Origin: a virus | Taxonomy: Duplodnaviria; Caudoviricetes | DNA: 42,873 bases | Reading direction: 5' to 3' (one strand) | IMG/VR virus record: IMGVR_UViG_3300022309_000011 | Location: 1 to 42,873 of that record | The notes under the pieces: generated by a model | Databases searched by the model: none | Seen by the model: the letters and a program-made list of their open reading frames with translations, nothing else | What the model was told of the DNA's origin: nothing | Made by a program: the position numbers and the translations under genes | Shown: positions 1,201 through 17,321 of the stretch, piece after piece | Layout of the letters: each line of letters starts with the position of its first letter | Position numbering within the stretch: the first letter of the stretch is position 1

Positions 1201-1226
1201 TTTTATAAATCCTTCCTTAGTTTGAG

Positions 1227-1570: not shown

Positions 1571-1571
1571 T

Positions 1572-1763
1572 TCATAATTTCCTTTTCTTCATTTTAATAA
1601 CGGACGGGCGAACTCTTTCTGCTTCTGTAACCACTGGATTATCTGGAATCGCCCATGATTTCCCCAGCCTTTTGACGCCTTTAATCCTGCCTTGCTCACA
1701 CAATACGCGAATGCGCCTTGCGCTTACATTGAGCTTTTCTGCTGCTTCTGTTGTGCCGATCAT
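1572..1763 (-). CDS. Small helix-turn-helix DNA-binding protein (HTH_17/excisionase-like)
   Basis: TTEAAEKLNVSARRIRVLCEQGRIKGVKRLGKSWAIP. Confidence 0.8.
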   Translation of the reverse strand: MIGTTEAAEKLNVSARRIRVLCEQGRIKGVKRLGKSWAIPDNPVVTEAERVRPSVIKMKKRKL

Positions 1764-1767
1764 TTTT

Positions 1768-1914
1768 TTACCTTAATCCCCAAAATATTAAACTCGAAAA
1801 AACAAATGCCCAAAAAATTACCTGGACAATATCTGTTTGGAATGCTTGAAAAACACATCGAATGCAATAATGAAAATTGCTTTCATGCCGCTGATGAAAT
1901 AAATTTTTATGCAT
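1768..1914 (-). CDS. Hypothetical small membrane protein (48 aa)
   Basis: ATG overlaps the upstream gene's end (ATGCATAA); hydrophobic C-terminus. Confidence 0.5.
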   Translation of the reverse strand: MHKNLFHQRHESNFHYCIRCVFQAFQTDIVQVIFWAFVFSSLIFWGLR

Positions 1915-2290
1915 TTTTACCCCCGGGAATAAGTTTAATTTTAGAATCAAATTCGTCTTTGATCCGTGTAATGGCCTCACATACTGCATGTTTGCTGTTT
2001 TTGATTGTCAGATTTCTGGCCGAAATAATTTGAATTTCATCCTGGCTTGCCCCTGCCAGTTCAATGCAGTCAATGTCTACGATTGGTTTATTTGCATTAT
2101 TGATATTCGTCAATGCGCGAAGAAATTCGCGTGATATGTTCGGGAACATTTGATAATCTTCCACGAACATTTCAAATGATGGAAGGTCATCATAGATAGA
2201 ATCCATAAGCCATTGCGTTGCGTATTCAATATCTGTCCGCAATTTCTCTTCGTGTATTTCTTGCTGTTTGTTTTCGTCTTTTGTATTCAT
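1907..2290 (-). CDS. Hypothetical protein
   Basis: 127-aa ORF with GGAGG RBS, tightly packed in the operon. Confidence 0.7.
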   Translation of the reverse strand: MNTKDENKQQEIHEEKLRTDIEYATQWLMDSIYDDLPSFEMFVEDYQMFPNISREFLRALTNINNANKPIVDIDCIELAGASQDEIQIISARNLTIKNSKHAVCEAITRIKDEFDSKIKLIPGGKNA

Positions 2291-2980
2291 TTAACCTCCC
2301 CATTGTTCAGCCATAGCGTTCGCAATCCCCTGATATGTGCGCGACCGTTCTTTCCATCTATCATCACTCGGGCAAAGTTTATTTTGGCCGCTGTCCGTCT
2401 GATTAGACCATCTCGGCTTGGCCACATTATCACCGTTGCAATTCGGACATCCGTATTTATCACCATTTTCAACAACTATACCGCAACACACCATGCGCGG
2501 CGCGATCTTCTTCGTTGGAATTAACTAATGAACACCGTGCAACCATAGACAAGTAGCCTTACTTGCATCATCACCAAACCAGTGTGGCTGTATGATCTGG
2601 TCAGGCTTTCGCACAAGTGTTGAAAGTTTTCCTATTGGATTTTCAACAACTCGGCGCGGGATGTGCGCAGTCTCTTTCCCGTCTATGAACATCCTAGCGA
2701 ATGCAAGTGCTTCTGTTACATGCTCAATGCGCGGCCTTCCATCTTTTTCAATACGCCCGCGTCCCACCCAATGCCACCCGCTGCCACAAAGATAAGTACA
2801 GTCTGGAAACGCTATTACCATATCCCATGAGTTTTGCAATAATGCGCGAACATCTCCGATGACATGGAACTGACTGTCATCCTCGCTTGGCAGCAAATCA
2901 CACGATATGGCATTATGCCCACGTGCACGGAATGCCTCACGCACCCGGCCCGAATATTCGCAAGCAATTAAAATATTCAT
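2291..2980 (-). pseudogene. Phage DNA (cytosine) methyltransferase-like gene interrupted by one in-frame TAG (2525-2527)
   Basis: N-terminal half MNILIACEYSGRVREAF...AFPDCTYL...VENP; the same frame continues after the TAG to RWKERSRTYQGIANAMAEQWGG, the typical C-terminus of this family. Confidence 0.75.
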
Positions 2981-3156
2981 TGTGTAGAACACTTTAAATC
3001 ATTAACGTGATATACAAATTGCGGATTTACAAAAAGTCCGCTATTTATATTTTCCACAAGAATTTTATCCCCTCTTATCTCAATAACAGAAAAAATAAGT
3101 TTTTCATCACCATGATCTAGTGCATCTTTAAAAACTACCGTGTTTCCTTTTTTCAT
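2977..3156 (-). CDS. Hypothetical protein (59 aa)
   Basis: Read manually: MKKGNTVVFKDALDHGDEK...KCSTQ*. AGGAG RBS and ATGA coupling to the next gene. Confidence 0.7.
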   Translation of the reverse strand: MKKGNTVVFKDALDHGDEKLIFSVIEIRGDKILVENINSGLFVNPQFVYHVNDLKCSTQ

Positions 3157-3182
3157 GTTTATTGCTCCTTTTCCATAATCAA

Positions 3183-3211
3183 ACTATACCGACAAGGGTA
3201 CAAAAAAGCAA
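3183..3211 (-). promoter_or_regulatory. Sigma70 promoter with operator-like palindrome
   Basis: TTGCTT-17 bp-TATAGT containing TACC-N6-GGTA. Confidence 0.75.
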
Positions 3212-3219
3212 CATTTATT

Positions 3220-3564
3220 TTAAAAATGCAGATCGAGCCTGTTTGCAGCTTCCATCGCGGTTTTTTCTTTTAGTTCTTTTTCTGTTTTAGATTGATCCCT
3301 CGGCTTGTGAATTAACCTGCGGTTTGATTCTGATACCTCGTAAATATTAATAGGTGATCCGCCGTTCTGGTTTGACTTTTCGCCTACTTTTACAATCTGC
3401 TTTCTATCGCAAAGCCACCAGGCTGAATAAGTTAGCGCCTTGGCGGGGATGTTGTTTTTTTCTGCAAATTTTTTTAAATCAAATACCGTAAATTTTGAAT
3501 GGGAAAAATTCTTTATCAAATACGGAAGCAGAATTTTGCTTGTGTGGTTTTTAATTCTGCTCAT
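3220..3564 (-). CDS. Hypothetical protein, possibly winged-helix
   Basis: 114-aa basic ORF in the operon. Confidence 0.6.
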   Translation of the reverse strand: MSRIKNHTSKILLPYLIKNFSHSKFTVFDLKKFAEKNNIPAKALTYSAWWLCDRKQIVKVGEKSNQNGGSPINIYEVSESNRRLIHKPRDQSKTEKELKEKTAMEAANRLDLHF

Positions 3565-3766
3565 TTACAATAACTTTCAGGGCAGTCCAATCAATAAGCA
3601 ATTCAAAATCATCATTCATGCTGATTTCAATATCAAGCGCCTTTTTATATTTCTTTTCATTGAGCGCATCTATTAATTCAGAAAGTTTTTTGTTGTATGT
3701 TGTTAAAATTTCACTCCAATCATGAATTAGCACTGGTTGTTTTTCTTCGATAATTTCAAAAGTCAT
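3551..3766 (-). CDS. Hypothetical protein
   Basis: 71-aa ORF overlapping the next gene. Confidence 0.6.
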   Translation of the reverse strand: MTFEIIEEKQPVLIHDWSEILTTYNKKLSELIDALNEKKYKKALDIEISMNDDFELLIDWTALKVIVNEQN

Positions 3767-3794
3767 TTTTAACCCCTATAAATTAAAATATCAA

Positions 3795-4478
3795 TTAATT
3801 CGAATAATTCTCCGCTTCAATGCGGGTTATAAAGAAATGTATTCCGTGCGAACACTCTTCGCGCAAATCAGGGTCGTATTTGTCTGGGATAACCTCTTCG
3901 CCGGTCTTGTAAAGCAGTTTGCCAGAATGTTTGTCATATGCTTCCTTTGCGCCAAATATTTCATGCACAAATGCTTTTGATGCCCTACATTTTCTTGATC
4001 CGATTGAATTCATGCGCTCGGCATCGTGCGGGATAACTAATCTCGCAATAAAATTACCTTGTAACTTTTTCCATCCAACAAATGCGCCTTCTATTGGGCA
4101 GATATTTTGTTGTGCAATTATTAATTCTCCGTTTTTAATATCAGCAAGGTTGGCATAGCGCAGGTTGGCAGAGCGCAGGTCGGCAGAGCTCAGGTCGGCA
4201 TAGCTCTGGTCGGCATAGCTCAGGTCGGCATAGCGCAGGTTGGCATAGCGCAGGTTGGCATAGCGCAGGTTGGCAGAGCGCAGGTCGGCAGAGCGCAGGT
4301 CGGCATAGCTCAGGTCGGCATAGCTCAGGTCGGCATAGCGCAGGTCGGCAGAGCTCAGGTCGGCATAGCGCAGGTTAATTTTTGATTTAAGTGCCGCCTC
4401 AACGCATAATTTCATTGATGATGTTTCAAGGCTGAAAATTATTGATCCATCAAATCTGTTTTTAATTTCAAATTTCAT
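3795..4478 (-). CDS. Pentapeptide-repeat protein with C-terminal DUF5758-like domain
   Basis: A(D/N)L(S/R)(Y/S) repeats, then FVGWKK...SRKCRAS...ECSHGIHFF. Confidence 0.85.
   Translation of the reverse strand: MKFEIKNRFDGSIIFSLETSSMKLCVEAALKSKINLRYADLSSADLRYADLSYADLSYADLRSADLRSANLRYANLRYANLRYADLSYADQSYADLSSADLRSANLRYANLADIKNGELIIAQQNICPIEGAFVGWKKLQGNFIARLVIPHDAERMNSIGSRKCRASKAFVHEIFGAKEAYDKHSGKLLYKTGEEVIPDKYDPDLREECSHGIHFFITRIEAENYSN
4143..4377 (-). repeat. 15-bp coding tandem repeat (pentapeptide repeats)
   Basis: About 15 units of GCA(T/G)AGC(G/T)CAGGT(C/T)G. Confidence 0.9.
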
Positions 4479-4480
4479 TT

Positions 4481-4963
4481 TTAAATTTCCTCTATAAATG
4501 ATTCGGCCATTATTTCAATTTCTTCGGGCGGCATATCTTTCCAGTAATTAGCTGCAATCCATCGGCAAAATGATCGGGCAATTTCATGCCTCTTCCCTTC
4601 GTCAATAGTTTCAAAATCAAGCGATAGAGGGTAGCGGTACTCCATTACGCTCATTCCTGGTATCACTACCCCGATAGAATCGCAATGAATATTCCCTTCT
4701 ATCTGCATACGCTTTAAAACTTGATGAGCATCCATCCCTTTGAATGTTTCAATGTGGATCGTACACAAAACGCCAATATAATGCACAAGCCGGTTAAACT
4801 TCGGATTGTTCAATTTCTTGAAAGTGCAGGTTACCAAATCCCCCATGTGATAATTACGCTCCCTCAATTTTGTTTGAGTGTAATTGTCTGCGGGTTCAAA
4901 TCCGCCTTTGATGACCCGCATCATGTATGTTGTGGGTTTTGATTTCTTTTTTAGTGGGATCAT
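4481..4963 (-). CDS. Hypothetical protein, possibly DUF1367/NinB-like
   Basis: 160 aa; NPKFNRL motif and SLDFETIDE resemble the NinB/DUF1367 group; adjacent to recombination genes. Confidence 0.5.
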   Translation of the reverse strand: MIPLKKKSKPTTYMMRVIKGGFEPADNYTQTKLRERNYHMGDLVTCTFKKLNNPKFNRLVHYIGVLCTIHIETFKGMDAHQVLKRMQIEGNIHCDSIGVVIPGMSVMEYRYPLSLDFETIDEGKRHEIARSFCRWIAANYWKDMPPEEIEIMAESFIEEI

Positions 4964-5184
4964 TATTCGTCAACATCATCAAAAATGCTTCTATTACCTT
5001 TTTCATCCAGAAGCATAGGATTATCAAGTACCTTTCTTTCAATCTGGCATAAAATTGTATTTTGCTTGACTGAAAGTTGTAACCTGTCTTTTATGCTTGG
5101 CAAGAATTCGAACTTTTCCCATGAGTTTAAATCACTGCCGACAGCTTCATCCAATATCCGTTTTACACGTTCATTAGGAGTCAT
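4963..5184 (-). CDS. Hypothetical protein
   Basis: 73-aa ORF coupled to both neighbours. Confidence 0.7.
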   Translation of the reverse strand: MTPNERVKRILDEAVGSDLNSWEKFEFLPSIKDRLQLSVKQNTILCQIERKVLDNPMLLDEKGNRSIFDDVDE

Positions 5185-6815
5185 TATTTGTTTTCCTTTG
5201 AAAATTCTTCAACAATCCATTGCTCGGCAATCGAATACTTGACCATATAAACTTTAGCCAATGCCTCGATCATTTGAATGCGGCTAGGTTTGCCGATTGT
5301 TTGCTTTGGCAATAATTCAGGGACGATTGGATTTTCAGTTGTTAATGATTGCTTAACAACTGAATTAGAATTATCTTCCTCAATCTTTGCGCGTTCTTCT
5401 GCACGAATCCTGGCATCTTCTGCTGCCAGCTTTGCCGCTGCTTCACGTTCTGCCTTGGCCGTGGCTTCAGCTTGCATCTTTGCACGTTCGGATTCAAGTC
5501 GTGCGGCCTCGCCAGCCTTGTGTTTTTCAATCCGGCTAGTGATTAGCAGTGTGAAGTCGTCCATCGGCTTGGCGATGATCTGCTGAAGGTCAGGTAATAG
5601 TGCGCTGTGACCGGCTGCATTGTCCTTGCACCATGCCAGCTTTGCGCGTACATCTTTCGCTACCTGATCGGCTGCAAATATTCCATCGCGCAGGGCAGTA
5701 TCAACGGCCTCTTGCATTGCTGAGAGCTTCTTCAAGCCCTTTATTACGCCAGCGAAATCAGGAACAAATGCATCACCAATACTAACCGGGAGTGTGATTG
5801 GTTTTATTTCGGATTCAAGCGAGTCAGCGTGTTCCCAGAATAATTTCTTGGCTTTTTCAATTATTGCCAGCTTGCGGCTTTCCTTTTCAGACTTAACAAG
5901 CTTGTCCAACATCAGGCGCTTTGAAGCAAGTTGCGCCTTGATGTGGTCTATCGTCTGGATAACCTCGTTAATGCTGGAGGTTTGCGCCAGCATGGATTTT
6001 TTAGCGCCTTCCAGGTCATCCTCGGCAGTTTTGCAGAATTTAACGTTGGCTTCGGCGTTTACAAAATCTTCATCCGTTACCAGTTCAGTCTTGATATTTG
6101 CAATAAAGGCATCAGCGGCCTTCTTGAATTCTGGCAGGTTGCTGGCCGTGACCATTCCAGTGGCTTGTACTGATACAGCAGGCAAGCCCATGATTTCATC
6201 GGCTACGGGTGAGGCTTTTTCTAAAATGTGCTGATAGTCGGCCAAGTCTTTTTTAAACTGATCCCATCCTGCAATGATGCGTTTGCGCAATACCAAATCT
6301 GGCATATACCATCCATGCACCTCTTCTGAAAGCGTTTCACCATCCCACTTTGAGGCCATGAATAGACATTTTTCTGCGCCTGAAATCATCAACTGATGTT
6401 CCATCTGCGCACGGTACATCTCAGAAAGTCCGCCAGTATTTCCGTTTGTTCCCATTGCAATGCGAATATCAGTATTCAGTGTTTTATGTTCAAAAATTGT
6501 TGTCTGGTCGAATGTGATTCCATCAAAGCTTGCAGAATACTCGCCTTCCACCCCTGTTACGGGTGACAAATCATCGCCAATTATTCCCTCTGCAATTGGT
6601 CGTGCAAGCGCCTCAAAACGATGACCATCGTTGAACCTACGTTGTGTTGCATCATCAACTTCCGGCATTATTCCTGTTGAACGTTCTTTCAATAATTCGT
6701 TACGGGTTTTATATTTGCTAATCCCAAGCATGGCCGGTGCATCGCTGGCATTAAATGATTTTGCGCGGTGCAAGTGCCATTCCGTTGTTCCCTGAACTAC
6801 GTTAATAATTTTCAT
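5184..6815 (-). CDS. YqaJ/lambda-exonuclease family protein with long coiled-coil C-terminus
   Basis: QGTTEWHLHR, ASDAPAMLGISKYKTR, GHRFE, SASFDG, FEHK, Y.AQMEHQL motifs. Confidence 0.9.
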   Translation of the reverse strand: MKIINVVQGTTEWHLHRAKSFNASDAPAMLGISKYKTRNELLKERSTGIMPEVDDATQRRFNDGHRFEALARPIAEGIIGDDLSPVTGVEGEYSASFDGITFDQTTIFEHKTLNTDIRIAMGTNGNTGGLSEMYRAQMEHQLMISGAEKCLFMASKWDGETLSEEVHGWYMPDLVLRKRIIAGWDQFKKDLADYQHILEKASPVADEIMGLPAVSVQATGMVTASNLPEFKKAADAFIANIKTELVTDEDFVNAEANVKFCKTAEDDLEGAKKSMLAQTSSINEVIQTIDHIKAQLASKRLMLDKLVKSEKESRKLAIIEKAKKLFWEHADSLESEIKPITLPVSIGDAFVPDFAGVIKGLKKLSAMQEAVDTALRDGIFAADQVAKDVRAKLAWCKDNAAGHSALLPDLQQIIAKPMDDFTLLITSRIEKHKAGEAARLESERAKMQAEATAKAEREAAAKLAAEDARIRAEERAKIEEDNSNSVVKQSLTTENPIVPELLPKQTIGKPSRIQMIEALAKVYMVKYSIAEQWIVEEFSKENK

Positions 6816-7678
6816 TTTGCATCCCCTTCAATTGTTGTCCATGAATTAATTGCTTCCAGCACATCATTTGGCAATTCGTATTTTGCCGATAGAAAGTCAA
6901 TTAGATTTTGCGCTGTTTCTTCGCCGCGTTCAATCATTGACTTTGGACTGAATTTTTTAACAACACCATCGGCGTCAACTTTGTCTTTTGTATATTTTGC
7001 CGTCAATTCTTCAATGGTCATTGTTTTACGCTCTGGCTTTAAATCTTTAACAACTGTCGCAGTTGATTCAATTGCCTGATCTTCCAGAATCTTACCTTCC
7101 ATTTCGTCCGCTGTTGGCTGTGATCCGCATTCGGGGAATGCCTTTCTCAATGCTTGCGCCTCTGCACATTTTGCAAGCTGTGCATATGGGCGTTTAATCC
7201 ACATCGTATTTGGCGCAATGCTCTTTTCCTTGCCGCCTTTCACTGCATAGTTTTCCTTCCATCGTTCGGTGGCTGAGAATTCTGCAATCGTGCCATTTGC
7301 CATCAATCGCTTGACCGTTACCTTGCATGACACCGGATATGTGATAGTCACGCCGCCAATATTCTCATTAACATCCGCGCCAAACTCTGCATCTGTTACA
7401 CCGGCATATTCACCTGAGCGAGCAGCTTGAGTTCGATACAGGCCGATACCGGGCATCACTACGTCACGCATTGCACCTGACTTGCTATCCCACATCGGGA
7501 CAATGTGTACCGGCTTTTGCATTGGATCAAGACCGCTAGCCTTGCAGTAACTTACAACAAGTTTAATACTGTCAAGCTGTGCACCAGGATAAAGAGAATT
7601 CCGAAGAACGTTTACAAGTTCAGATTCATCCATCGCAAGGGCTGGCAAGCCACTATTTGATTTCACAATGTCATTCAT
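6812..7678 (-). CDS. bet: Phage recombination protein Bet (RecT/Redbeta family)
   Basis: YCKASGLDPMQKPVHIVP, GIGLYRTQAARSGEYAG, W..RP..QLAKCAEAQALRKAFP. Confidence 0.92.
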   Translation of the reverse strand: MNDIVKSNSGLPALAMDESELVNVLRNSLYPGAQLDSIKLVVSYCKASGLDPMQKPVHIVPMWDSKSGAMRDVVMPGIGLYRTQAARSGEYAGVTDAEFGADVNENIGGVTITYPVSCKVTVKRLMANGTIAEFSATERWKENYAVKGGKEKSIAPNTMWIKRPYAQLAKCAEAQALRKAFPECGSQPTADEMEGKILEDQAIESTATVVKDLKPERKTMTIEELTAKYTKDKVDADGVVKKFSPKSMIERGEETAQNLIDFLSAKYELPNDVLEAINSWTTIEGDAK

Positions 7679-7715
7679 ATCTAAATTCCCTTTTAAAATT
7701 AATAAGCAGGATTAA

Positions 7716-7744
7716 ACTATACCGAAACAGGAATATGCAGTCAA
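7716..7744 (-). promoter_or_regulatory. Leftward early sigma70 promoter (PL-like)
   Basis: TTGACT-17 bp-TATAGT containing TTCC-N6-GGTA. Confidence 0.8.
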
Positions 7745-7766
7745 GTAAATTTTAACTTTGTTTTGA

Positions 7767-7796
7767 TTGCTTTTTAAAATAGATTCATGGTAATAT
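7767..7796 (+). promoter_or_regulatory. Rightward early promoter (PR-like)
   Basis: TTGCTT-18 bp-TAATAT with an extended -10 TGn, upstream of the cro-like gene. Confidence 0.55.
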
Positions 7797-7841
7797 TTTC
7801 CCGTCTTGAAGTGGTCAAGACCATAAAAGAAAGGTAACCTC

Positions 7842-8054
7842 ATGAAAGTAAATAAAGAAGATGTTATTCGTCACATTACCGGAAGCGGTAAAGATAATGC
7901 CGGATGCGCTCAAATACTCGGCTATGCCTTGCAAACCGTTTACAACTGGCCTAATCACATGGGCATCCAGGACATGAAGCGATTAGTAAAGCGCATGGAA
8001 GAAAGAGATTTGCCAATACCAGCGGCGTGGAAGAAATCTAAAAAGGCTAAGTAA
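7842..8054 (+). CDS. Cro-like HTH regulator
   Basis: NAGCAQILGYALQTVYNWP HTH; first gene of the rightward operon. Confidence 0.7.
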   Translation: MKVNKEDVIRHITGSGKDNAGCAQILGYALQTVYNWPNHMGIQDMKRLVKRMEERDLPIPAAWKKSKKAK

Positions 8055-8055
8055 T

Positions 8056-8835
8056 ATGCACTTTTACGAATGGAATATTGGCGAATATGCCAAAAAAACC
8101 AAACACCTCACGAACGAAGAGGATATAGCTTATCGCCGTGCGCTTGATATGTATTACGATACAGAAAAGCCATTGGAAACCCAAAATATCCCAGCGCTAT
8201 CCCGTAGGTTAATGGTTTCAGAAGATGCATTAAAAAATGTGATAAATGAGTTCTTTCCAGATGGTATAAATCAACATGCCGAGGAAAAAATAGCAGCTTA
8301 TTATGCTTTTATTGATAAGCAAAAAGCCAATGGCAGCAAGGGAGGTAGACCAAAAAGAACCCAAGCCTTTCCCAAGCCTAACCCAAAAAAACCCAAGCCA
8401 AAGCCATTACTAACTAATAACTACTTACCACTAACTACTGAACAATCAAAGTCAAAATCTTTGTCTGCGCAAAATGCGCAAACCTCAAAAAAAGGAACTC
8501 GATTAACATCTGATTGGGTATTGTCAAAATCATTGGGGGATTGGGCTTTAGCTGAAAAACCGCATCTTACCGCCGATAACATCCGGCGCATGGCTGAGTC
8601 ATTTCGGGATTACTGGATAGCGAAACCTGGCAAGGATGGCGTTAAACTCGACTGGGAGGCAACTTGGCGTAATTGGGTGCGCAAGGATACAACCGATTGG
8701 CAAAAATCGACGCAAGGCGGCTCAAATCAAACCGTATCGCCAGTTAAGCACATCTGCGAGATAGAAAATTGTGGAAAAGAGGCAAATACGAAGACGTCAA
8801 AAGGCCATAGATGCGTGGCACATATTGCAAAATAG
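8056..8835 (+). CDS. Replication initiation protein, YdaU/DUF1376 family
   Basis: MHFYEWNIGEY...HLTNEEDIAYRRALDMYYDTEKP, NGSKGGRP, C-terminal DWEATWRNWVR. Confidence 0.85.
   Translation: MHFYEWNIGEYAKKTKHLTNEEDIAYRRALDMYYDTEKPLETQNIPALSRRLMVSEDALKNVINEFFPDGINQHAEEKIAAYYAFIDKQKANGSKGGRPKRTQAFPKPNPKKPKPKPLLTNNYLPLTTEQSKSKSLSAQNAQTSKKGTRLTSDWVLSKSLGDWALAEKPHLTADNIRRMAESFRDYWIAKPGKDGVKLDWEATWRNWVRKDTTDWQKSTQGGSNQTVSPVKHICEIENCGKEANTKTSKGHRCVAHIAK
8358..8440 (+). repeat. Iteron-like repeats inside the replication gene (putative origin)
   Basis: CCCAAGCC x3 plus AACCCAA, then (C)TAACTA repeats; lambdoid origins lie inside the initiator gene. Confidence 0.5.
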
Positions 8836-8866
8836 AAATTAAATCATTAACTTTTAAGGGGATTTT

Positions 8867-11122
8867 ATGAAATACGAAGAGTTTATCGAAAGTAAAAAGA
8901 TTCAACCTGTCATCGCGGGCTTTGATGTTGACGAAAATAGCTTGAATGACAATCTTTTTGACTTCCAGCGAGTAATTGTTAAATGGGCTTTGAAGCGTGG
9001 CCGTGCTGCTATATTTGCAGATACCGGACTTGGCAAAACATTAATGCAAACTTCATGGGCTGACGAGGTTGTTAATTACACCGGCGGCGATGTGCTGATA
9101 TTTGCGCCTCTATGTGTGGCAAATCAGACAGTGAACGAAGGCAAAAAATTTGACATTGAAATAAATTATTGCCGTGATCAAGACGGGATAAAGACGGGCG
9201 TCAATATCACCAATTACGAAATGATGGATAATTTTGATCTTTCGTTATTCGCGGGCGTGGTTTTGGATGAGTCAAGCATCATTAAAAACCGCGATGGTAA
9301 AACGCGCAATGCAATAATCGAAGGTTGCAAAATAGTACCTTATCGACTTTCATGCACCGCGACCCCATCACCAAACGACTTTATGGAATTGGGCAATCAG
9401 GTTGAATTCCTCGGCATCATGACCATGACTGAAATGCTCGCCATGTATTTCGTAAATGACGCGGGGGATACTGGAACATGGATTTTAAAAGGTCATGGTA
9501 AGGAGAAGTTTTGGGAATGGATGGCAACATGGGCAGTCTGTATTCGTAGCCCGGAGGATATTGGTTTTGACGGTTCAAAATATATTTTGCCGCCATTGAA
9601 CATGATCGGTCATGTAGTAGAAAGTGCCACTACTTTTGGATTGTTTGCTGATATTGCGCAAGGGCTATTAGAGCGCAATCAAGCAAGGCGCGATTCAATT
9701 GATGATCGAGTTGCAAAATGCGCAGAAGTTGTTAATACGAGTTCAGAACAATTCTTTATATGGTGCCATTTGAATGACGAAGCCGCCATGATTGAAAAAA
9801 TGATACCCGGTGCCGTTGATGTATCCGGCAGTGATTCAATCGAACACAAAGAAGAATCTATCAGAGGATTTATTGACGGATCGATTCGCGTTTTAGTTTC
9901 AAAACCAAAAATACTTGGGGCTGGTATGAATTTTCAACATTGTCATAACACTGCATTTGTCGGTCTATCAGATAGCTGGGAACAATACTATCAGGCTATC
10001 CGTAGGTTCTATCGCTTCGGTCAAACCAAAGAAGTCAACGTGCATATTATCAGCGCAGAATCAGAAGGCGCAGTGGTTGAAAATATTAGGCGCAAAGAAC
10101 TGCAAAATGAAGAGATGGGTTCGCAGATGGTTAAACACATGAGCAATGCTATGAAAAAGGAAATATTTGGAATGAGTGAAGAAAAATCAGAATATGTACG
10201 CGATGTTGTCAAGACTGCGGATTATGAATTGCATCTTGCTGATTGCGTAGAATTGGCAAGTGAGATTGAAACTGGCACGATTGATTACACAATTTTTAGC
10301 CCGCCGTTTGAATCAATGTATGTATTCAGTAATCACATTCGAGATATGGGAAATTCAACGAAAGAACAGTTCTATCAGCACTTCCGTTTTCTGGTTGATG
10401 AAATGTTGCGTATTACTCGCCCCGGAAGATTGCTTTCGTTTCACTGTATGAATTTGCCAACTTCAAAAGTAAATGATGGATATATCGGAATCCGTGATTT
10501 CCGTGGCGATCTTATTCGCATGTTTCAACAATCAGGATGGATTTACCATAGCGAGGTATGTATTTGGAAAGATCCTGTAGTTGCTATGCAACGCACAAAG
10601 GCACTTGGATTGCTCCATAAGACCATTCGCAAAGATAGCTCAATGAGCCGCCAAGGGATTGCTGATTATTTGGTTACCATGCGCAAGCCAGGACAAAATG
10701 ATAAGGCTGTGAGGCATTATCGTGACGCAGAAGAATGTGCGGATGTATGCAAGGCAGAAGGATTGGACTATGAAACTGAGTGTAAAAACATTCTTGAAGT
10801 CGGATTATGGCAACAATACGCAAGCCCTGTATGGATGGATATTAATCAATCGCGTACACTCAACTTTAAATCAGGCCGTGACGATGATGACCAAAAACAT
10901 ATATGCCCATTGCAACTTGATGTGATTGAACGTGCTATGCATCTTTGGACTGCGCCAGGTGATCTTGTATTCAGTCCGTTTACTGGAGTTGGCAGCGAAG
11001 GTTATGTAGCTGTAGGAATGGGTCGCAGATTCATCGGCAGCGAATTGAAACAAAGTTACTTTGATCTTGCCAAAAAGAATATGCAAGATGCGAAAAAAGG
11101 AACAATGGACATGTTCGCATGA
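8867..11122 (+). CDS. SNF2-like helicase fused to an N4/N6 DNA methyltransferase
   Basis: ADTGLGKT, LDESS, TATP and QAIRRFYRFGQ helicase motifs; C-terminal FSPPF and FSPFTGVGSEG methyltransferase motifs. Confidence 0.9.
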   Translation: MKYEEFIESKKIQPVIAGFDVDENSLNDNLFDFQRVIVKWALKRGRAAIFADTGLGKTLMQTSWADEVVNYTGGDVLIFAPLCVANQTVNEGKKFDIEINYCRDQDGIKTGVNITNYEMMDNFDLSLFAGVVLDESSIIKNRDGKTRNAIIEGCKIVPYRLSCTATPSPNDFMELGNQVEFLGIMTMTEMLAMYFVNDAGDTGTWILKGHGKEKFWEWMATWAVCIRSPEDIGFDGSKYILPPLNMIGHVVESATTFGLFADIAQGLLERNQARRDSIDDRVAKCAEVVNTSSEQFFIWCHLNDEAAMIEKMIPGAVDVSGSDSIEHKEESIRGFIDGSIRVLVSKPKILGAGMNFQHCHNTAFVGLSDSWEQYYQAIRRFYRFGQTKEVNVHIISAESEGAVVENIRRKELQNEEMGSQMVKHMSNAMKKEIFGMSEEKSEYVRDVVKTADYELHLADCVELASEIETGTIDYTIFSPPFESMYVFSNHIRDMGNSTKEQFYQHFRFLVDEMLRITRPGRLLSFHCMNLPTSKVNDGYIGIRDFRGDLIRMFQQSGWIYHSEVCIWKDPVVAMQRTKALGLLHKTIRKDSSMSRQGIADYLVTMRKPGQNDKAVRHYRDAEECADVCKAEGLDYETECKNILEVGLWQQYASPVWMDINQSRTLNFKSGRDDDDQKHICPLQLDVIERAMHLWTAPGDLVFSPFTGVGSEGYVAVGMGRRFIGSELKQSYFDLAKKNMQDAKKGTMDMFA

Positions 11123-11313
11123 CCCGTTCCCCATCCGGCCACAGATGCGGGCAATCGCATCAAAAGGCCAAACTGACTGATGCCCAAGTCATTGCAATGC
11201 GAAAGCGGTATATCCCCTATGTGGTTAGCTACAAAACTCTATCCAAAGAGTTTAATTGTGGCGAAAGCACTGCGCGGGATATTTGCCAGTATGTAACTAG
11301 GATTAACGTATGA
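11119..11313 (+). CDS. Small HTH protein
   Basis: G..H.KAKLTDAQV..MR...SYKTLSKEFNCGESTARDI. Confidence 0.7.
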   Translation: MTRSPSGHRCGQSHQKAKLTDAQVIAMRKRYIPYVVSYKTLSKEFNCGESTARDICQYVTRINV

Positions 11314-11537
11314 CATGCCACTGGTGCGAAACAGACAACGGGAACTACGACTTTTCAAATATCTGTTGCAGAGTCCGTTTTTTATTTACCCAGCACGATA
11401 TTAATAATCGCAGGGGATGGATGGATAGATGGGCCAAGAAGTTTGGAAATGAACAGGCAGAGCAAGTAAAAATTCAATTTGAAACTCAATGGAAAGAAAA
11501 ACGGGGGAACAATGCCAAGTACACAAGAACAGATTAA
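11310..11537 (+). CDS. Hypothetical protein with Cys cluster
   Basis: 75 aa, CHWC...CC; ATGA coupling. Confidence 0.65.
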   Translation: MTCHWCETDNGNYDFSNICCRVRFLFTQHDINNRRGWMDRWAKKFGNEQAEQVKIQFETQWKEKRGNNAKYTRTD

Positions 11538-11853
11538 GTCAGCAATATTACTGAACGAACCAATTTTCAGACCTGATTTTTATATATGGGCCTGCAACAA
11601 CCATGAGATTTATAGTCACTTTGAGCAAGACGCAAAAAGATTCGCGGCAAATGGATTTAAAAAAATTGGCGCAAAAATGATTATCGAAAATATCCGATAC
11701 AGAACGAAGTTGCGTGAAATTGGAAACGGGGAATGGAAAATAAACAATAATTTCTCGGCAGATTTGGCGAGGCTATTTTTATTGCTTAATCCTGAATTCC
11801 CTGGATTATTTGAAATCCGCGTAGTTCATTCAAATATCTTGCGTGGAATATGA
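11512..11853 (+). CDS. Hypothetical phage protein
   Basis: GGGGG RBS; IIENIRY...WKINNNF..DLARLF......LFEIR. Confidence 0.7.
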   Translation: MPSTQEQIKSAILLNEPIFRPDFYIWACNNHEIYSHFEQDAKRFAANGFKKIGAKMIIENIRYRTKLREIGNGEWKINNNFSADLARLFLLLNPEFPGLFEIRVVHSNILRGI

Positions 11854-12416
11854 AAAATAAAAAATGCAAAGTACCGTATTGCAGGGCTATATTTGAGCCA
11901 AGAACTCCATTGCAAAGCGTTTGCAGTCCGAAATGTGCAGGAATATGGGCCGGAATTCTCAGGGAGAAAAAGGAACTTTTACAGAAGAAAGAAGCCCGTA
12001 AGGAATATCGGGAAGCAAAGTTAAAAATGAAGCGCAGGGGGGAATGGAAATCTGACGCGCAGGATATAATAAATTTATGGATAAAATTGAGAGATTATTT
12101 TGAGCCATGTATTTCATGCGGGAAACATAGGAATGCTTATGATGCAGGACATTATTTAGCCCGAAGCATAAGGCCAGAACTTGCATTTCATGAAGATAAT
12201 ATTCACAAGCAATGCGTGTACTGTAACAACTACAACAAAGGCGTAGGAAGCGCAGGATACAGGCCAAATCTGATAAAAAAAATCGGAATTGAAAAAGTCG
12301 AAGAACTTGAAAAACCACATCCCCCGGCACATCATACAATTGAGTTTTATCAAGGCATAATTTCAACATATAAACAAAAAATAAAAGAGCGAAAAAAAGA
12401 ATTAAATTTGTGTTGA
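11850..12416 (+). CDS. ninG: NinG/Rap family recombination nuclease
   Basis: CK..C...Q.VCSPKCA, CISCG, DAGHY, LAFHEDNIHKQCVYCN. Confidence 0.9.
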   Translation: MKNKKCKVPYCRAIFEPRTPLQSVCSPKCAGIWAGILREKKELLQKKEARKEYREAKLKMKRRGEWKSDAQDIINLWIKLRDYFEPCISCGKHRNAYDAGHYLARSIRPELAFHEDNIHKQCVYCNNYNKGVGSAGYRPNLIKKIGIEKVEELEKPHPPAHHTIEFYQGIISTYKQKIKERKKELNLC

Positions 12417-12441
12417 CTGACGGCCATAAACGGAATAGTAT
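12413..12441 (+). promoter_or_regulatory. Sigma70 promoter upstream of the cassette array (Pc-like)
   Basis: TTGACT-17 bp-TAGTAT. Confidence 0.65.
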
Positions 12442-12665
12442 TTGCCTTGCTGTTGTAGTAATTAGACATAGGGGAGTTACATCCTTCAAGCTGAATTAGG
12501 GCCAGTCAGAGGTGGAAAGCCTTGGATGCATGAGCCACATCATAGAACGGCCTTTATCACTTGTTTATTTTGCCCTTTGGTGTATTCACAAAATAAAATT
12601 TAGTGCAATCCCTTGTAACTCGGAAACTATATCAGGGAAAATTTAGGCAACGGCAAAATATTAAA

Positions 12666-12690
12666 ACAAGATGCGATTTTCGCATCTTGT
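12666..12690. other. Perfect 11-bp stem hairpin in the leader of cassette 1
   Basis: ACAAGATGCGA-TTT-TCGCATCTTGT. Confidence 0.7.
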
Positions 12691-12708
12691 ATATTCTCAG
12701 GGGGATAT

Positions 12709-13023
12709 ATGTGTAAATTTGAAATTCTTGCGAAGCTGCACGGGATTGATGTAAACAAAAACGAGCATAATTATTTAAACCCAAAAGCTGAGATTGCGCG
12801 TACATTTTGGGATGCTCAACAAGTAGAAATTGACAGGCTTAAACAAGAGCTATGTGATGTAACTTTTGCGGCTAAGGCTTTTAAATATGTGTTGGATAAC
12901 CAGGATAATAAAACAGCGAAATCAAAACCAATTTTAAAAAATATTCAACTTCCTAATCCATTTCGTTATTTAGTGATTGCATTGGCGGTGATTGGTTTTT
13001 TAATTTATCTGAATATTGCCTAA
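12709..13023 (+). CDS. Cassette 1: hypothetical protein with C-terminal TM helix
   Basis: GGGGG RBS; stop TAA lies inside R'' of attC1. Confidence 0.75.
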   Translation: MCKFEILAKLHGIDVNKNEHNYLNPKAEIARTFWDAQQVEIDRLKQELCDVTFAAKAFKYVLDNQDNKTAKSKPILKNIQLPNPFRYLVIALAVIGFLIYLNIA

Positions 13024-13080
13024 CAAACCAAATCAGGGGATCGAACGCAGTGAGATTCCCGCTTGAATGTTTGGTTGGGC
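13018..13080 (+). repeat. attC site 1
   Basis: GCCTAAC...GGGATC...GATTCCC...GTTGGGC, 63 bp. Confidence 0.85.
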
Positions 13081-13096
13081 AACGAAAGGATAAAAG

Positions 13097-13438
13097 ATGA
13101 ACAGAAATATGATTGAGCAAGTAAAAGATGCTAAAACACCGGAAGAAATGAGGGCTGAAATTTTCAGGTTACAGCGCTACGACCCATTGGTGAGAGCAGT
13201 GATAGATTCATCACAATACCGTGGCGCGAGCGCCGAAGATACTTATACCGTTCTCGCATACAATGCGATGAAGCAACTAGCAGAAATAAAACAACACGTT
13301 TTTGATGATGCAATTATGCGCCCACCACAACCTGTGTTTGTGATGCCCAACGTTCAAATTGAGGGGCAGGCCGCTTCTGGCCTGTCCCGCTCGAATGCAG
13401 GGTTGTGCGTCAATACTACGGAGCGGGGGAATGAATGA
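13097..13438 (+). CDS. Cassette 2: hypothetical protein; reading frame runs through attC2
   Basis: AAGGA RBS; the C-terminal tail PNVQIEGQAASGLSRSNAGL is translated attC2. Confidence 0.75.
   Translation: MNRNMIEQVKDAKTPEEMRAEIFRLQRYDPLVRAVIDSSQYRGASAEDTYTVLAYNAMKQLAEIKQHVFDDAIMRPPQPVFVMPNVQIEGQAASGLSRSNAGLCVNTTERGNE
13345..13408 (+). repeat. attC site 2
   Basis: GCCCAAC...GGGCAGGCC-GCTTCT-GGCCTGTCC...GTTGTGC, 64 bp. Confidence 0.88.
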
Positions 13439-14357
13439 GTTGGCTTTATTCGCAGGCGCTGGTGGAGGAATACTTGCTGGACACTCACTCGGATGGCGCA
13501 CAGTTTGCGCAGTCGAGTGGGAGCCATACGCCGCAAGCGTACTTGCACAGAGACAAAATGACAAAATTCTCGCGCCTTTCCCGATTTGGGATGACGTATG
13601 CACCTTTGACGGAAAGCCATGGCGTGGAGTTGTTGACGTGGTTTCTGGTGGCTTCCCGTGTACGGACATATCAGCCGCAGGGCGAGGCGCAGGAATTGAA
13701 GGCGAGCATAGCGGGTTGTGGCGAGAAATGGCACGAATTATCGGTGAAGTATTGCCCCGTTTTGTGTTCGTGGAAAACTCACCGCTCCTTGTGGGAAGAG
13801 GTGCTGCAATGGTCATCGGTGATCTTGCCGCGATGGGGTATGACGCGCAATGGTGTTGTCTTTCAGCATCCGACATGGGAGCGCCCCATCAGCGCGATAG
13901 GTTCTGGCTTGCAGCCAGACAACGAGAGCTTTTTCCATACGCCGACATGCGGTGGAATGGACGGCGGGAGCAACAGCAGGAAGGCGCTCAAGAAACGGCA
14001 GGAAGTATTTGCCACGCCGCAGGCGCGGGACTACCGCAGCGGGCAGGCAAGCCGATGGGACGATCCGGCGCGCAGTCGGAACTTGAACGATCAGATTGCA
14101 AAGTACCCGACCCCACAAGCATCGGACAACAGGGACAGGGGATGCCGTTCAACGCCAGCGATAGCACGGCGTATAGCGGCAGGAAAGCAAGTTATGCTAT
14201 CCATGATGGTGAGCGAAGAGAATGGCCGCCTGAACCCGGAATTTGTCGAGTGGTTGATGGGATGGCCGCAAGGATGGACAGACTTAAAGCCCTTGGAAAT
14301 GGGCAGGTTCCGCGAGTGGCAAGCACAGCATGGCGGATTTTGACGCACAACGCATGA
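13431..14357 (+). CDS. Cassette 3: C5 cytosine DNA methyltransferase, alpha polypeptide
   Basis: Motifs I LFAGAGG, IV GGFPC, VI ENSP, VIII HQRDR and X LKALGNGQVP present; motif IX absent. Confidence 0.9.
   Translation: MNELALFAGAGGGILAGHSLGWRTVCAVEWEPYAASVLAQRQNDKILAPFPIWDDVCTFDGKPWRGVVDVVSGGFPCTDISAAGRGAGIEGEHSGLWREMARIIGEVLPRFVFVENSPLLVGRGAAMVIGDLAAMGYDAQWCCLSASDMGAPHQRDRFWLAARQRELFPYADMRWNGRREQQQEGAQETAGSICHAAGAGLPQRAGKPMGRSGAQSELERSDCKVPDPTSIGQQGQGMPFNASDSTAYSGRKASYAIHDGERREWPPEPGICRVVDGMAARMDRLKALGNGQVPRVASTAWRILTHNA
13435..14343 (+). CDS. Cassette 3: overlapping alternative-frame methyltransferase beta polypeptide
   Basis: 302 stop-free codons in the +1 frame; repeated TP..D motifs and motif-IX-like RLNPEFVEWLMGWP..WT. 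True start uncertain. Confidence 0.75.
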   Translation: MSWLYSQALVEEYLLDTHSDGAQFAQSSGSHTPQAYLHRDKMTKFSRLSRFGMTYAPLTESHGVELLTWFLVASRVRTYQPQGEAQELKASIAGCGEKWHELSVKYCPVLCSWKTHRSLWEEVLQWSSVILPRWGMTRNGVVFQHPTWERPISAIGSGLQPDNESFFHTPTCGGMDGGSNSRKALKKRQEVFATPQARDYRSGQASRWDDPARSRNLNDQIAKYPTPQASDNRDRGCRSTPAIARRIAAGKQVMLSMMVSEENGRLNPEFVEWLMGWPQGWTDLKPLEMGRFREWQAQHGGF

Positions 14358-14399
14358 ATTTTGGGGCGCGCAGCGTCCCGCAACAATGACGGGTTATGC
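14345..14399 (+). repeat. attC site 3
   Basis: GCACAAC...GGGGCGC-GCA-GCGTCCC...GTTATGC, 55 bp. Confidence 0.82.
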
Positions 14400-14422
14400 C
14401 CCGTCTTTAATCGGAGAACTGA

Positions 14423-14632
14423 ATGGACGCTAAAACAAGACGCAAACATCTTCGTGACTTTCAGGATGCGGCGCGAGAGATTGAATTGGGCGGGGTCTGC
14501 ATTGGCATTCTTGAAGCGATGCGAGACCCAGTTGGGCAGCGCTGTATAAAAGCGCTCAACGCCAGCGCACAGCGGCAGCTTACGAAACTCGATAAAGCGG
14601 CGGAAAAACTTGGGGCACCATACGGGGCATAA
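14423..14632 (+). CDS. Cassette 4: hypothetical protein
   Basis: GGAG RBS; stop TAA inside R'' of attC4. Confidence 0.75.
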   Translation: MDAKTRRKHLRDFQDAAREIELGGVCIGILEAMRDPVGQRCIKALNASAQRQLTKLDKAAEKLGAPYGA

Positions 14633-14694
14633 CGTGTAGTTGAGGGGCTGGACGAGGCGTTTATCGGCCAGTCCGCTCGAACGGAAAGTTATAC
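14627..14694 (+). repeat. attC site 4
   Basis: GCATAAC...TTGAGGGGCTGG...CCAGTCCGCTCGAA...GTTATAC, 68 bp. Confidence 0.88.
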
Positions 14695-14898
14695 ATGAAA
14701 ACTCAATATATAAAATTTTGCCAGCAACATAATGACTCTGTATTGGGTTCACAAGCTATAACGTGGATAACAACATCATTAGTGCGTGTCACTCGAAACA
14801 GATTACAAAAGGCTCATTTTGAGTGGGTAGGTAACGCATCAATGCAATTTGATTTAGATGAGGTGCGTAAATTGTACCCTTTGGCACTGTATGTATAA
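14695..14898 (+). CDS. Cassette 5: hypothetical protein
   Basis: ATG directly after R' of attC4; stop TAA inside R'' of attC5. Confidence 0.7.
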   Translation: MKTQYIKFCQQHNDSVLGSQAITWITTSLVRVTRNRLQKAHFEWVGNASMQFDLDEVRKLYPLALYV

Positions 14899-14953
14899 CG
14901 CAGAAATCAGGGGCTGAGCGTTAGCGAAGTCCCGCTGGATTGTAGGGTTGTGC
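14893..14953 (+). repeat. attC site 5
   Basis: GTATAAC...AATCAGGGGCT...AGTCCCGCTGGATT...GTTGTGC, 61 bp. Confidence 0.88.
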
Positions 14954-14978
14954 GTCATTTTTAACGAAGAGGTGAAAA

Positions 14979-15131
14979 ATGAAGTTTATTTTTATAGTAA
15001 TCGGTGCTGCGTTTTTAATGTTCCTCGGAGCCTTTGCGCATGAAGGGGACATCCAATCACAGTGCAGAGAACATGGCAAGGCCGGGCATTCTGCATGGCG
15101 TGGCGAACTTATCTGCGCGCCACTGCAATGA
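14979..15131 (+). CDS. Cassette 6: 50-aa protein with N-terminal hydrophobic/signal segment
   Basis: Read manually: MKFIFIVIGAAFLMFLGAFAHEGDIQSQCREHGKAGHSAWRGELICAPLQ*; GAGGTG RBS. Confidence 0.75.
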   Translation: MKFIFIVIGAAFLMFLGAFAHEGDIQSQCREHGKAGHSAWRGELICAPLQ

Positions 15132-15132
15132 C

Positions 15133-15193
15133 GCACAACAAGTATTAGGCGGCCTTATAATATATAAATTATGCCGTCTAAATCACGTTTTAT
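15133..15193 (+). repeat. attC site 6 (terminal, degenerate R')
   Basis: GCACAAC-5 nt-TTAGGCGG...CCGTCTAA-5 nt-GTTTTAT. Confidence 0.65.
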
Positions 15194-15439: not shown

Positions 15440-16045
15440 ATGAATACACCGAAAAAGAAAGTTGGCCGAAAGAGCAAAATCCCCGAAGGCGAGAGAGAAA
15501 AAATCCGCGCCCGACTTATGAGGGGCGATACGATGGCTGATATTGCAAGGGATTATGGTGTTGATCCCAAAGTGATTCAGCGCATGAAGCACTTGGCAAA
15601 GCAGGAGGGGGGGGAAACCAGGCTTCCTGTTGGAATGATTAAGCAGGCGGCTGAAAAGTCACTTGAAAACGATCTTCGTGATCCTGTCGTAAGAAATCTG
15701 CTTGAAATTGCAGGCCAATCGGATCGGGATTTATTTTATAACCACAAAAACGATTTGCTTGAAATTACAATGCAGTTAAATCTTTCATGTAAATTCAGCG
15801 CCCAGAACGCGCACAAACTGGCGGCTATGGCGCATAACCATTTAAGCAAGCTTGAAACTACCGCTTTGCTCGATAGCGAAAGCAAGGAAACTTTAAACAA
15901 GGCAATGGTATTGCAAGACGCATCAAACGAATCCGCAAAACAGCCGATGAAGCTGTTTGAAATCGCCACGAAACAGCCGCCCCCTCCCCCGGAAGATAAG
16001 CCATTACGGATTATTGGAGGTTTGCCGGAAGTGCCGTATGAATGA
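15440..16045 (+). CDS. terS: Terminase small subunit (N-terminal HTH)
   Basis: GRKSKI, MADIARDYGVDPKVI HTH; C-terminal IIGGLP; directly upstream of terL. Confidence 0.75.
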   Translation: MNTPKKKVGRKSKIPEGEREKIRARLMRGDTMADIARDYGVDPKVIQRMKHLAKQEGGETRLPVGMIKQAAEKSLENDLRDPVVRNLLEIAGQSDRDLFYNHKNDLLEITMQLNLSCKFSAQNAHKLAAMAHNHLSKLETTALLDSESKETLNKAMVLQDASNESAKQPMKLFEIATKQPPPPPEDKPLRIIGGLPEVPYE

Positions 16046-17321
16046 CCGGGAAACATACCCGGACGCAGTTATTCTGCCGGTGCTTCATCCTGGACAGGTT
16101 GAAGCATATATGATGCGCAAACGGTTTAAGGCAATTCGCTGCGGGAGGAGATGGGGCAAGACTGACTTATTGAAAACAATTGCCGGAGATGGGGCAACAA
16201 AAGGGCAATCAATCGGCTGGTTTACGCCGGACTACAAGATTCAATCAGAAGCATATAACGAAATCAGGGAAATTTTGCATCCTGTAATTCGGTCGGCCTC
16301 AAAAATTGATGGGGTCATTAGGCTGATTACTGGGGGCCGCATTGATTTTTGGACATTAAACAACCCAAGGGCCGGGCGATCAAGGAAGTATCATAAAGTC
16401 TTGCTGGATGAGGTCGCATTCGCTGGCCCAGACATGCGTGGTATATGGGAGAAATCCATTAAGCCTTCATTGCTGGATTATGGTGGTAGCGCAATGGCGG
16501 CTTCAACTCCAAACGGGGACGATCCTGACAATTTCTTTTGGCAGTTATGCAATGATCCAACATTAGGATTCTCTGAATACCATGCGCCAACGCATACAAA
16601 TCCCTATTTGCCGGAAGATGAGCTTGCAAAGCTGGTAAACGAAAATGCCCCTCTTGTTTACTCGCAAGAGTATCTTGCAAACTTTGTAGACTGGAAAGGC
16701 GCTGCGTTCTTTGCGCTTGATTCATTGCTTGAAAATGGATTTCCAGTAGACCCAACAATGAACCCAGATGCCGTTTACGCTATAGTCGATACGGCGGTAA
16801 AGGATGGACTTGAGCATGATGGAACGGCAGTAACCTATTTTGCTGTATCAAAATTTCATGGTTTCCGGCTGGTTGTGCTGGATTGGGATATTGTCCAGAT
16901 AAAAGGGGATTTACTTGAAAACTGGATGCCGAGCGTATACCGAAGATGTGAAGAGCTTGCAACGCAGTACAAAGCCCGCCATGGTTCATTGGGGGCATTC
17001 ATTGAGGATAAGCAGACCGGAACTATATTGATTCAGCAGGCAGAGCGCAGGGGGCTACCAGGCAGGGCTATAGATGGCAAACTTACAGCGGCGGGGAAAG
17101 ACGCCCGTGCGATTTCCGTATCAGGATATGTGCATCAAGGATTGATAAGGATAAGCAGACACGCATTTGATAAGGTGATAAACTTCAAAGGCGTAACGAG
17201 AAATCATTTTATTGCACAGGTTTGCGGTTTCAGGATCGGGGTCAAAGATCAGGCTGATGACTTGTTTGATACCTTCACTTATGGCATAAGTATTGGCCTT
17301 GGCGATTCTTCAGGATATTAA
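16038..17321 (+). CDS. terL: Terminase large subunit
   Basis: Walker A CGRRWGKT, Walker B LLDEVAF, STPNG, nuclease VDTA and DDLFD. Confidence 0.95.
   Translation: MNDRETYPDAVILPVLHPGQVEAYMMRKRFKAIRCGRRWGKTDLLKTIAGDGATKGQSIGWFTPDYKIQSEAYNEIREILHPVIRSASKIDGVIRLITGGRIDFWTLNNPRAGRSRKYHKVLLDEVAFAGPDMRGIWEKSIKPSLLDYGGSAMAASTPNGDDPDNFFWQLCNDPTLGFSEYHAPTHTNPYLPEDELAKLVNENAPLVYSQEYLANFVDWKGAAFFALDSLLENGFPVDPTMNPDAVYAIVDTAVKDGLEHDGTAVTYFAVSKFHGFRLVVLDWDIVQIKGDLLENWMPSVYRRCEELATQYKARHGSLGAFIEDKQTGTILIQQAERRGLPGRAIDGKLTAAGKDARAISVSGYVHQGLIRISRHAFDKVINFKGVTRNHFIAQVCGFRIGVKDQADDLFDTFTYGISIGLGDSSGY

Follow-up and report, generated by a model that had tools for sequence, protein, structure and literature searches.

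A reversed cassette array with integron-type attC sites between ninG and terS of a phage genome

How can a phage genome that encodes no integrase carry what looks like a row of integron cassettes, and which recombinase would move them? The question is raised by IMG/VR record IMGVR_UViG_3300022309_000011, a phage record of 42,873 bp (~42.9 kb) that was analyzed in its entirety and is called the window here. Between its ninG and terS genes, six genes are separated by imperfect palindromes, which an earlier note on the sequence had read as six attC sites. The reading that we favor as the probable one is that this is a real integron-type array, with five attC sites to which the genes are antisense, and that an integron integrase (IntI), probably borrowed from the host, is the likely agent of its loading and reshuffling at a fixed docking site beside terS.

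All six elements of the form NNNNAAC...GTT that had been placed at positions 13018, 13345, 14345, 14627, 14893 and 15133 are present (63, 64, 55, 68, 61 and 61 bp, respectively), and attC architecture as such was also borne out for five of them. In the analysis, we used a strand-aware attC scorer built on the extrahelical-base rules given in the available text of PMC5027507. With the minus strand taken as the top strand, sites 1 to 5 scored 11.5 to 15.5, compared with 2 to 6 on the opposite strand. No hit of 11 or more was found in 10 shuffled genomes, and the scorer recovered both IntI1-validated sites of phage TJE1 on the published strand. The covariance-model check suggested in the earlier note was run with a model of our own, made from 45 attC sites that lie beside bacterial IntI genes (picked by the scorer, without sites matching the window-derived pattern described below). 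Across the 42,873 bp, at E<=1, it returned five matches rather than six, all on the minus strand and with 27.7 to 70.2 bits: attC 1 (13018..13080; score 11.5, 27.7 bits), attC 2 (13345..13408; score 15.5, 70.2 bits), attC 3 (14345..14399; score 14.0, 33.2 bits), attC 4 (14627..14694; score 13.0, 51.2 bits) and attC 5 (14893..14953; score 14.5, 51.1 bits). The sixth claimed site, at 15133..15193, scored 4 to 4.5 on both strands and was missed by the model.

On the minus strand, sites 1 to 5 have R and L boxes with AAC/GTT, spacers of 5 nt and 5 to 6 nt, and lengths in the range of ~55 to 141 bp, a layout that site 6 lacks; site 3, with 55 bp, is just below the minimum of 57 bp quoted in PMC5027507. 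The bottom strand of attC carries extrahelical bases at positions 16 (G), 20 (optional) and 23/24 (T), as described in the same source. On the plus strand of the window, the bases at positions 16, 20 and 24 are G/G/T in sites 1, 2 and 5 and C/G/T in site 3, and site 4 has two extrahelical bases, G16 and T23, so that sites 1, 2, 4 and 5 agree with the rule and site 3 departs from it at position 16. By these measures the five palindromes are true attC sites whose top strand is the minus strand. With at least two attC sites by the covariance model and no integron integrase nearby in the recombinase searches, the array is an attC cluster that lacks an integron integrase (CALIN).

Since the minus strand corresponds to the top strand of a canonical attC, the box labels of the earlier note are swapped: the NNNNAAC box seen on the plus strand is the R' box of the bottom strand, not R''. 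It also follows that the genes are antisense, that the cut is expected at AA|C (predicted after 13023, 13350, 14350, 14632, 14898 and 15138), that the hairpin upstream of a gene is that gene's own, and that site 6 is the proximal end. The note's assignment of each site to the gene upstream of it was thus mistaken, and all six genes lie on the attC bottom strand instead of on the top strand with attC downstream. Its observation that a stop codon is the TAA within the first box holds for the open reading frames ending at 13023, 14632 and 14898. The folding check that it proposed had a divided outcome: freely folded, the integrated sites did not form clean hairpins, and the circle forms did.

We then analyzed the borders of the cassettes. 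Past the triplet itself, the sequence after each GTT complements the box ending the next gene over a further 6, 5, 9, 9, 6 and 10 bases; within the same hairpin, complementarity extends by only 0 to 2 bases. In a permutation test, the true order alone (1/720) attained the observed sum. When start and end are joined in a circle, a perfect R box is restored in all six units, whose G+C contents range from 34% to 57%. Such start-end complementarity is the trace expected from circles recombining inside the R box. It is compatible with either orientation, including an arrangement of six attC sites in the normal orientation, each downstream of its gene and with the crossover at G/TT on the plus strand. 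We regard that arrangement as hardly credible, because all structural marks and all covariance-model hits are on the minus strand and because hairpin 1 does not accompany gene 1 in a relative of the window.

The relative is the X2 contig (958 nt), which is 97% identical to the window over 12540-13060, with 22 differences and one gap. Sixteen of the differences are listed, all at or before 12869, and the other six are not placeable. The contig retains gene 1 (protein 92% identical), differs in 6 of the 14 letters at 13061-13074, and then continues into another cassette start; the breakpoint can be placed only between about 13000 and 13060. Because X2 keeps gene 1 while its hairpin 1 differs, hairpins appear to be owned by the downstream gene, and hairpin 1 would belong to gene 2 rather than travel with gene 1. 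An apparent joint in X2 from 13364 to 14896 (21 letters a side) is a match between repeats and was set aside, and run X1, from which the window may itself derive, was given no weight as support. Other phages supplied 11 pairs of shared cassettes, 3 of them from identical arrays; in the 8 informative pairs, the hairpin on the gene's own side was more alike in 6, equal in 1 and less alike in 1. The L184 and L194 loci share an identical 981-nt cassette with its hairpin beside a different neighbor.

The two ends of the array differ from the sites between them. On the ninG side, a remnant R'' box of the oldest cassette lies at 12642..12648 (minus strand), where nine bases match the box at 13018 and the AAC triplet is changed; no difference from X2 is listed at 12642. 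An intact attC upstream of gene 1 was rejected, as the region has no attC structure and a best score of 4. The distal end of the array is likely locked, its hairpin having decayed. On the terS side, site 6 (15133..15193, minus strand) is not an attC site but a fixed end and a candidate attI-like docking site. We compared array ends with two attI profiles, one from chromosomal attI sites and one from phage-IntI sites, using a background of 1,479 sites. The array ends beside bacterial intI (12 sites) have in common a motif resembling GTGTCTAC, placed five bases ahead of G|TT. On the chromosomal profile, 10 of 16 ends in phages without an adjacent IntI were in the top 1% of the background, including those of L004 and L089; the 16 also include L176, which does not represent a true end. 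The position of site 6 fits an attI at the proximal end, with a motif that is weak in the window and strong in L004 and L089. A search for a cassette promoter (Pc) gave one weak minus-strand match at 15401-15374, at chance level, which by its strand could not express the cassette genes anyway. A scan for promoters and terminators also remained at chance level.

To place the reversed polarity in a wider context, a pattern from sites 2 and 4 was used, which matched 38 viral loci and at least 130 genome rows; about 50 loci were shorter than 700 bp. Many of the genome rows among the matches listed are titled Gallionellaceae or Nitrosomonadales. The attC 2 core recurs unchanged in other viral contigs, and sites in Gallionellaceae genomes match it at 98% identity, these loci having been found with a pattern derived from attC 2 itself. 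Three viral and eight genome loci from duplicate contigs were dropped, and L003 and L004 were added. A first orientation count by the longest open reading frame was noisy and was replaced. In 30 viral loci, 119 of 153 intervals were antisense, 6 were sense and 28 were unclear, so that 29 of the 30 loci were antisense by majority and one was a tie. Among the matches listed in genomes, 127 intervals in 40 loci gave 12 antisense, 93 sense and 22 unclear, and by majority 36 loci were sense, 2 antisense and 2 ties. Antisense arrays in the bacterial assemblies L216 and L262 are possibly prophages.

The integrons of Gallionellaceae and related Betaproteobacteria resemble the window array in the sequence family and length of their attC sites, and a similar attI motif is found at the array end of close relatives of the window. 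They differ in that intI is adjacent and the genes are mostly sense, in that their cassettes are longer (median 597 nt, compared with 342 nt in the viral pool), and in that no protein is common to the two pools. Specifically, homologs in another viral locus exist for 49 of the 191 antisense cassette proteins from viruses, and homologs among 101 bacterial sense proteins exist for none of them.

Relatives of the window differ in cassette content at the ninG-terS locus, as the earlier note had anticipated. In the L003, L004 and L089 loci (TerL 84-89% identical), the reversed cassettes that precede terS carry different cargo, and X2 adds a further case; in L005 (TerL 77%), the upstream DNA is too short for comparison. 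Among relatives at 84-97% identity, there is no common cassette order beyond gene 1. A survey of 118 distinct TerL loci showed no case of two sites at 67% identity or less, and only 1 of 38 more distant TerL loci with long upstream DNA has a covariance-model hit, a single site 7 kb off. Because the array platform is nearly absent at these more distant loci, it is recent in the phage's TerL clade. L018 has a single attC of the same family at 972-1035, pointing in the opposite direction and located 7 kb upstream from a terL with 63% identity.

Such turnover bears on the proposal that the array was built by an IntI elsewhere, was acquired as a block, and varies now only through RecT/YqaJ recombination with the hairpins as short homologies. 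The phage does encode RecT and YqaJ, the hairpins have sequence in common, the distal hairpin is decayed and site 6 is weak, and the frame of gene 2 runs through attC 2. On the other hand, exact start-end complementarity is retained in all six units, four of the attC sites have scores of at least 13, and no cassette order is shared beyond gene 1 at 84-97% identity, though the X2 breakpoint can be set only to about 13000-13060. Taken together, these points make the block acquisition unlikely, and we continue with the reading that IntI still loads the array.

What, then, would supply the integrase? The earlier note had stated that the genome encodes no tyrosine recombinase, and we found none among its 66 open reading frames and none in a six-frame search of the record; nor was an IntI remnant found in the window in six frames. 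In 15 genome loci among the matches listed, TIGR02249 integrases adjoin the same attC family, and 16 of 16 recombinases tested next to this family are integron integrases above the TIGR02249 cut-off. Action on the hairpins by a recombinase other than IntI, such as a Xer-like enzyme, is very improbable, since all 16 recombinases beside the family pass that cut-off and since the window sites fit a covariance model from IntI-linked integrons. In the family to which L232 belongs, IntI is present in 83 of 151 genomes. By comparison, it is found in none of 7 near-complete phage records with such arrays and in 1 of 30 records overall. A supply of IntI by the host is plausible on these distributions.

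The same cassettes and chemistry could also be served by a phage-encoded integrase, either from a resident or co-infecting phage or once present in the platform and then lost. IntI relatives are encoded in 71 viral loci, of which 15 have no full open reading frame by motif and 8 are duplicates. In those with callable arrays, 21 of 22 are antisense (59 antisense, 10 sense and 11 unclear intervals), and the phage intI is co-directional, just downstream of attI. Most of 16 IntI-bearing loci checked have phage structural or integrase genes, and in L350 a complete integron of reversed array, attI and intI lies between terL and portal (740-14441), its intI running in the same direction as the head genes. 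The methyltransferase cassette of the window is 78% DNA-identical to a cassette in the IntI-bearing L383, and the L182 contig (G265 18420-18620) has an N-terminal IntI fragment and a phage-type attI. In a quick tree, 37 of 46 viral IntIs group together (SH-like approximate likelihood ratio test, 94), in a sample biased by taking the viral rows from one viral query and only 14 chromosomal rows. However, L004 and L089 are the closest relatives whose end site can be read, and their ends score 7.9 and 3.0 on the chromosomal profile, compared with -2.8 and -0.1 on the phage profile, and the window itself is free of an IntI remnant. A phage source of the integrase is therefore the less probable of the two, and host-borrowed IntI is retained as the favored source. 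As separate observations, the platform on the L182 contig (G265) is seemingly losing its integrase, and in L337, L339, L342, L351, L354, L355, L362 and L371, intI is directly followed by a second tyrosine recombinase, a phage integrase.

The cargo of the array was also investigated; all six genes are on the plus strand. Gene 1 (12709..13023, 104 amino acids, no assigned function) ends with a stop codon inside the site 1 R' box and has 4 homologs among 7 candidates, with one homolog outside an array in L174. Gene 2 (13097..13438, 113 amino acids) has no assigned function and no Pfam or PHROG family, and tblastn homologs were rejected because the hits were the translated hairpin only. A frame running through an attC hairpin, as at 13097-13438 in the window, is also seen in MW202573 (L410 1860-2153). 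Gene 4 (14423..14632, 69 amino acids, no assigned function) has a 52% identical full-length homolog that is a cassette in L171. Gene 5 (14695..14898, 67 amino acids, no assigned function) and gene 6 (14979..15131, 50 amino acids, with a hydrophobic N terminus and predicted to be the newest cassette) have no Pfam or PHROG family.

The third gene (13431..14357) encodes a C5 cytosine methyltransferase (PF00145, E 8e-28; phrog_363 and phrog_1008) and has a nested 302-amino-acid frame at 13435-14343. Both frames, overlapping on the same strand, are kept in the homologs of L383, L184, L339 and L003. In heterodimers of the M.EcoHK31I type, motifs I-VIII and X are in one frame and motif IX is in the nested frame, in approximate numbering. 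The two frames of the window are predicted to form a two-part C5 methyltransferase like M.EcoHK31I, in which the enzyme is likewise joined by a second polypeptide from another frame of the same gene (PMC2836561); the difference is that the window enzyme is encoded by a phage cassette, as a predicted orphan. The methyltransferase gene has no adjacent attC in 5 of 5 other phage records examined. Because of this, and because gene 1 has a homolog outside an array, the cargo has the look of ordinary phage genes that were turned into cassettes; the phage-like cargo and phage pool that had been proposed are in this respect borne out in appearance, with cassette proteins common to viral loci. PAPS-reductase-like genes (phrog_424; PAPS, 3'-phosphoadenosine-5'-phosphosulfate) recur in or beside reversed arrays (L342, L354, L360 and L184), and several methyltransferase families occur alongside them, DNA-modification cargo being common in reversed arrays. 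A two-gene cassette with a promoter-like spacer in L003 (1530-1941) resembles a small regulatory or toxin-antitoxin pair.

The fixed flanks of the array are on the plus strand: ninG at 11850..12416 (Pfam PF05766, E 5e-50) on the left, and terS with terL at 15440..17321 on the right, recognized by gene order and by TerL relatives named terminase large subunit. The genome has RecT/YqaJ, a helicase-methylase fusion and ninG ahead of the array, and terS, terL, the portal gene and tail genes after it. The frames cut off at the two ends of the record (42605-42873 and 1-272) match consecutive parts of one 178-amino-acid gene in L409, a lysis-region gene with one half at each end. Because of these halves, and because the same TerL is also present on a 43,016-bp contig, we infer that the record is a circle short of a few bases. 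Elsewhere in the window there are a ParB-like gene and an excisionase-like HTH_17 gene (316-1763), without any integrase, and two more methyltransferases outside the array, at 2525-2992 (phrog_757) and 8867-11122 (a fusion of SNF2 and an N6/N4 methyltransferase). No close relative was found among cultured phages (best TerL identity, 54%), and the methyltransferase was the sole source of matches between the array and them. An Rfam search found nothing in the array region; searches with NinG and terS gave few useful loci, and one with the ParB-like gene gave none.

Several observations weigh against the reading that we favor. A search of 251 genomes from the candidate host family did not turn up the TerL. 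Against the background of 1,479 sites, site 6 ranks in the top 2.8% by the chromosomal profile and in the top 1.3% by the phage-IntI profile, 8.5% of 142 attC ends score as high, the end of attC 4 in the window outscores it, and the array end of L003 is unremarkable on the attI profile. There is no excess of sigma-70 promoters (8, compared with 5.4 +/- 2.5). The orientation calls come from our own reading-frame scorer, and related loci are not independent (L172 and L190 are identical). The comparison of protein pools is a weak test, as only 4 of 101 bacterial cassette proteins match within their own pool. CheckV grades the record linear and 82% complete. Finally, the array is known here from contigs alone, and recombination and excised circles are predicted.

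Phage CALINs themselves were already known, which the earlier note had missed: 17 were reported in 10,705 phages, with methyltransferase cargo, and IntI1 recombined 5 of the 6 sites that were assayed (Qi et al. 2023, PMC9892861). They resemble the window array in their attC clusters without integrase and in their methyltransferase cargo, and their proposed entry route was off-target homologous or illegitimate recombination (PMC9892861). One phage of that study, MW202573, has four sites of the window's attC family, all antisense to its annotated genes, a layout that is not remarked on in the main text and that a figure may show. Nor does the main text speak of reversed polarity, of a docking end that stays fixed, of cassette turnover in related phages or of a phage pool, and its best example, TJE1, has the normal (sense) orientation, unlike the window array. 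The reversed polarity would thus be what is new relative to published phage CALINs; we found no paper, mainly in the open literature, that treats phage cassettes of reversed polarity or an IntI branch of phages. In single attC sites lacking integron integrases (SALINs) and attC x attG recombination, IntI likewise inserts cassettes without attI, at GWT (Loot et al., bioRxiv 10.1101/2022.09.11.507474). The available text of that work concerns bacterial genomes and describes no strand bias, and the window holds an ordered six-unit array of one polarity. By analogy, attC x attG insertion is a possible origin of the docking end.

In the mechanism that we propose, each circle would consist of a gene and the hairpin upstream of it. 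IntI acting in trans would recombine the folded plus (coding) strand of the circle, at AA|C, with the double-stranded end beside terS. New cassettes would enter beside terS and older ones would be pushed toward ninG, where the hairpin of the oldest would have decayed. With the reversed polarity, the phage's own rightward transcript would read the cassette genes, and no Pc would be needed. Reversed cassettes would be silent in a bacterial integron, and the phage and bacterial pools would therefore be kept apart.

Integron cassettes are defined by an orientation that can be read from a bacterial promoter. The reversed phage cassettes cannot simply be borrowed bacterial ones and so would have been made from phage genes. 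Three stop codons of the array lie in the R' box, so that the opposite strand reads GTT, the target of IntI outside att sites (GWT; bioRxiv 10.1101/2022.09.11.507474), which suggests how a phage gene could become a cassette: IntI could recombine an upstream attC with the GTT opposite the gene's own TAA-C stop. If true, this would be a direct route to cassette genesis, and reversed arrays give a handle on how cassettes arise. Standard annotation would mislabel such arrays, as happened in the earlier note. Tentatively, and with less confidence than in the array itself, we propose that phages of freshwater Betaproteobacteria run their own branch of integrons, with a separate pool of reversed cassettes made from ordinary phage genes that is common to IntI-encoding phages and to phages that, like this one, have only a docking site. 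Part of the accessory-gene mosaicism of phages may then be site-specific and SOS-linked rather than random.

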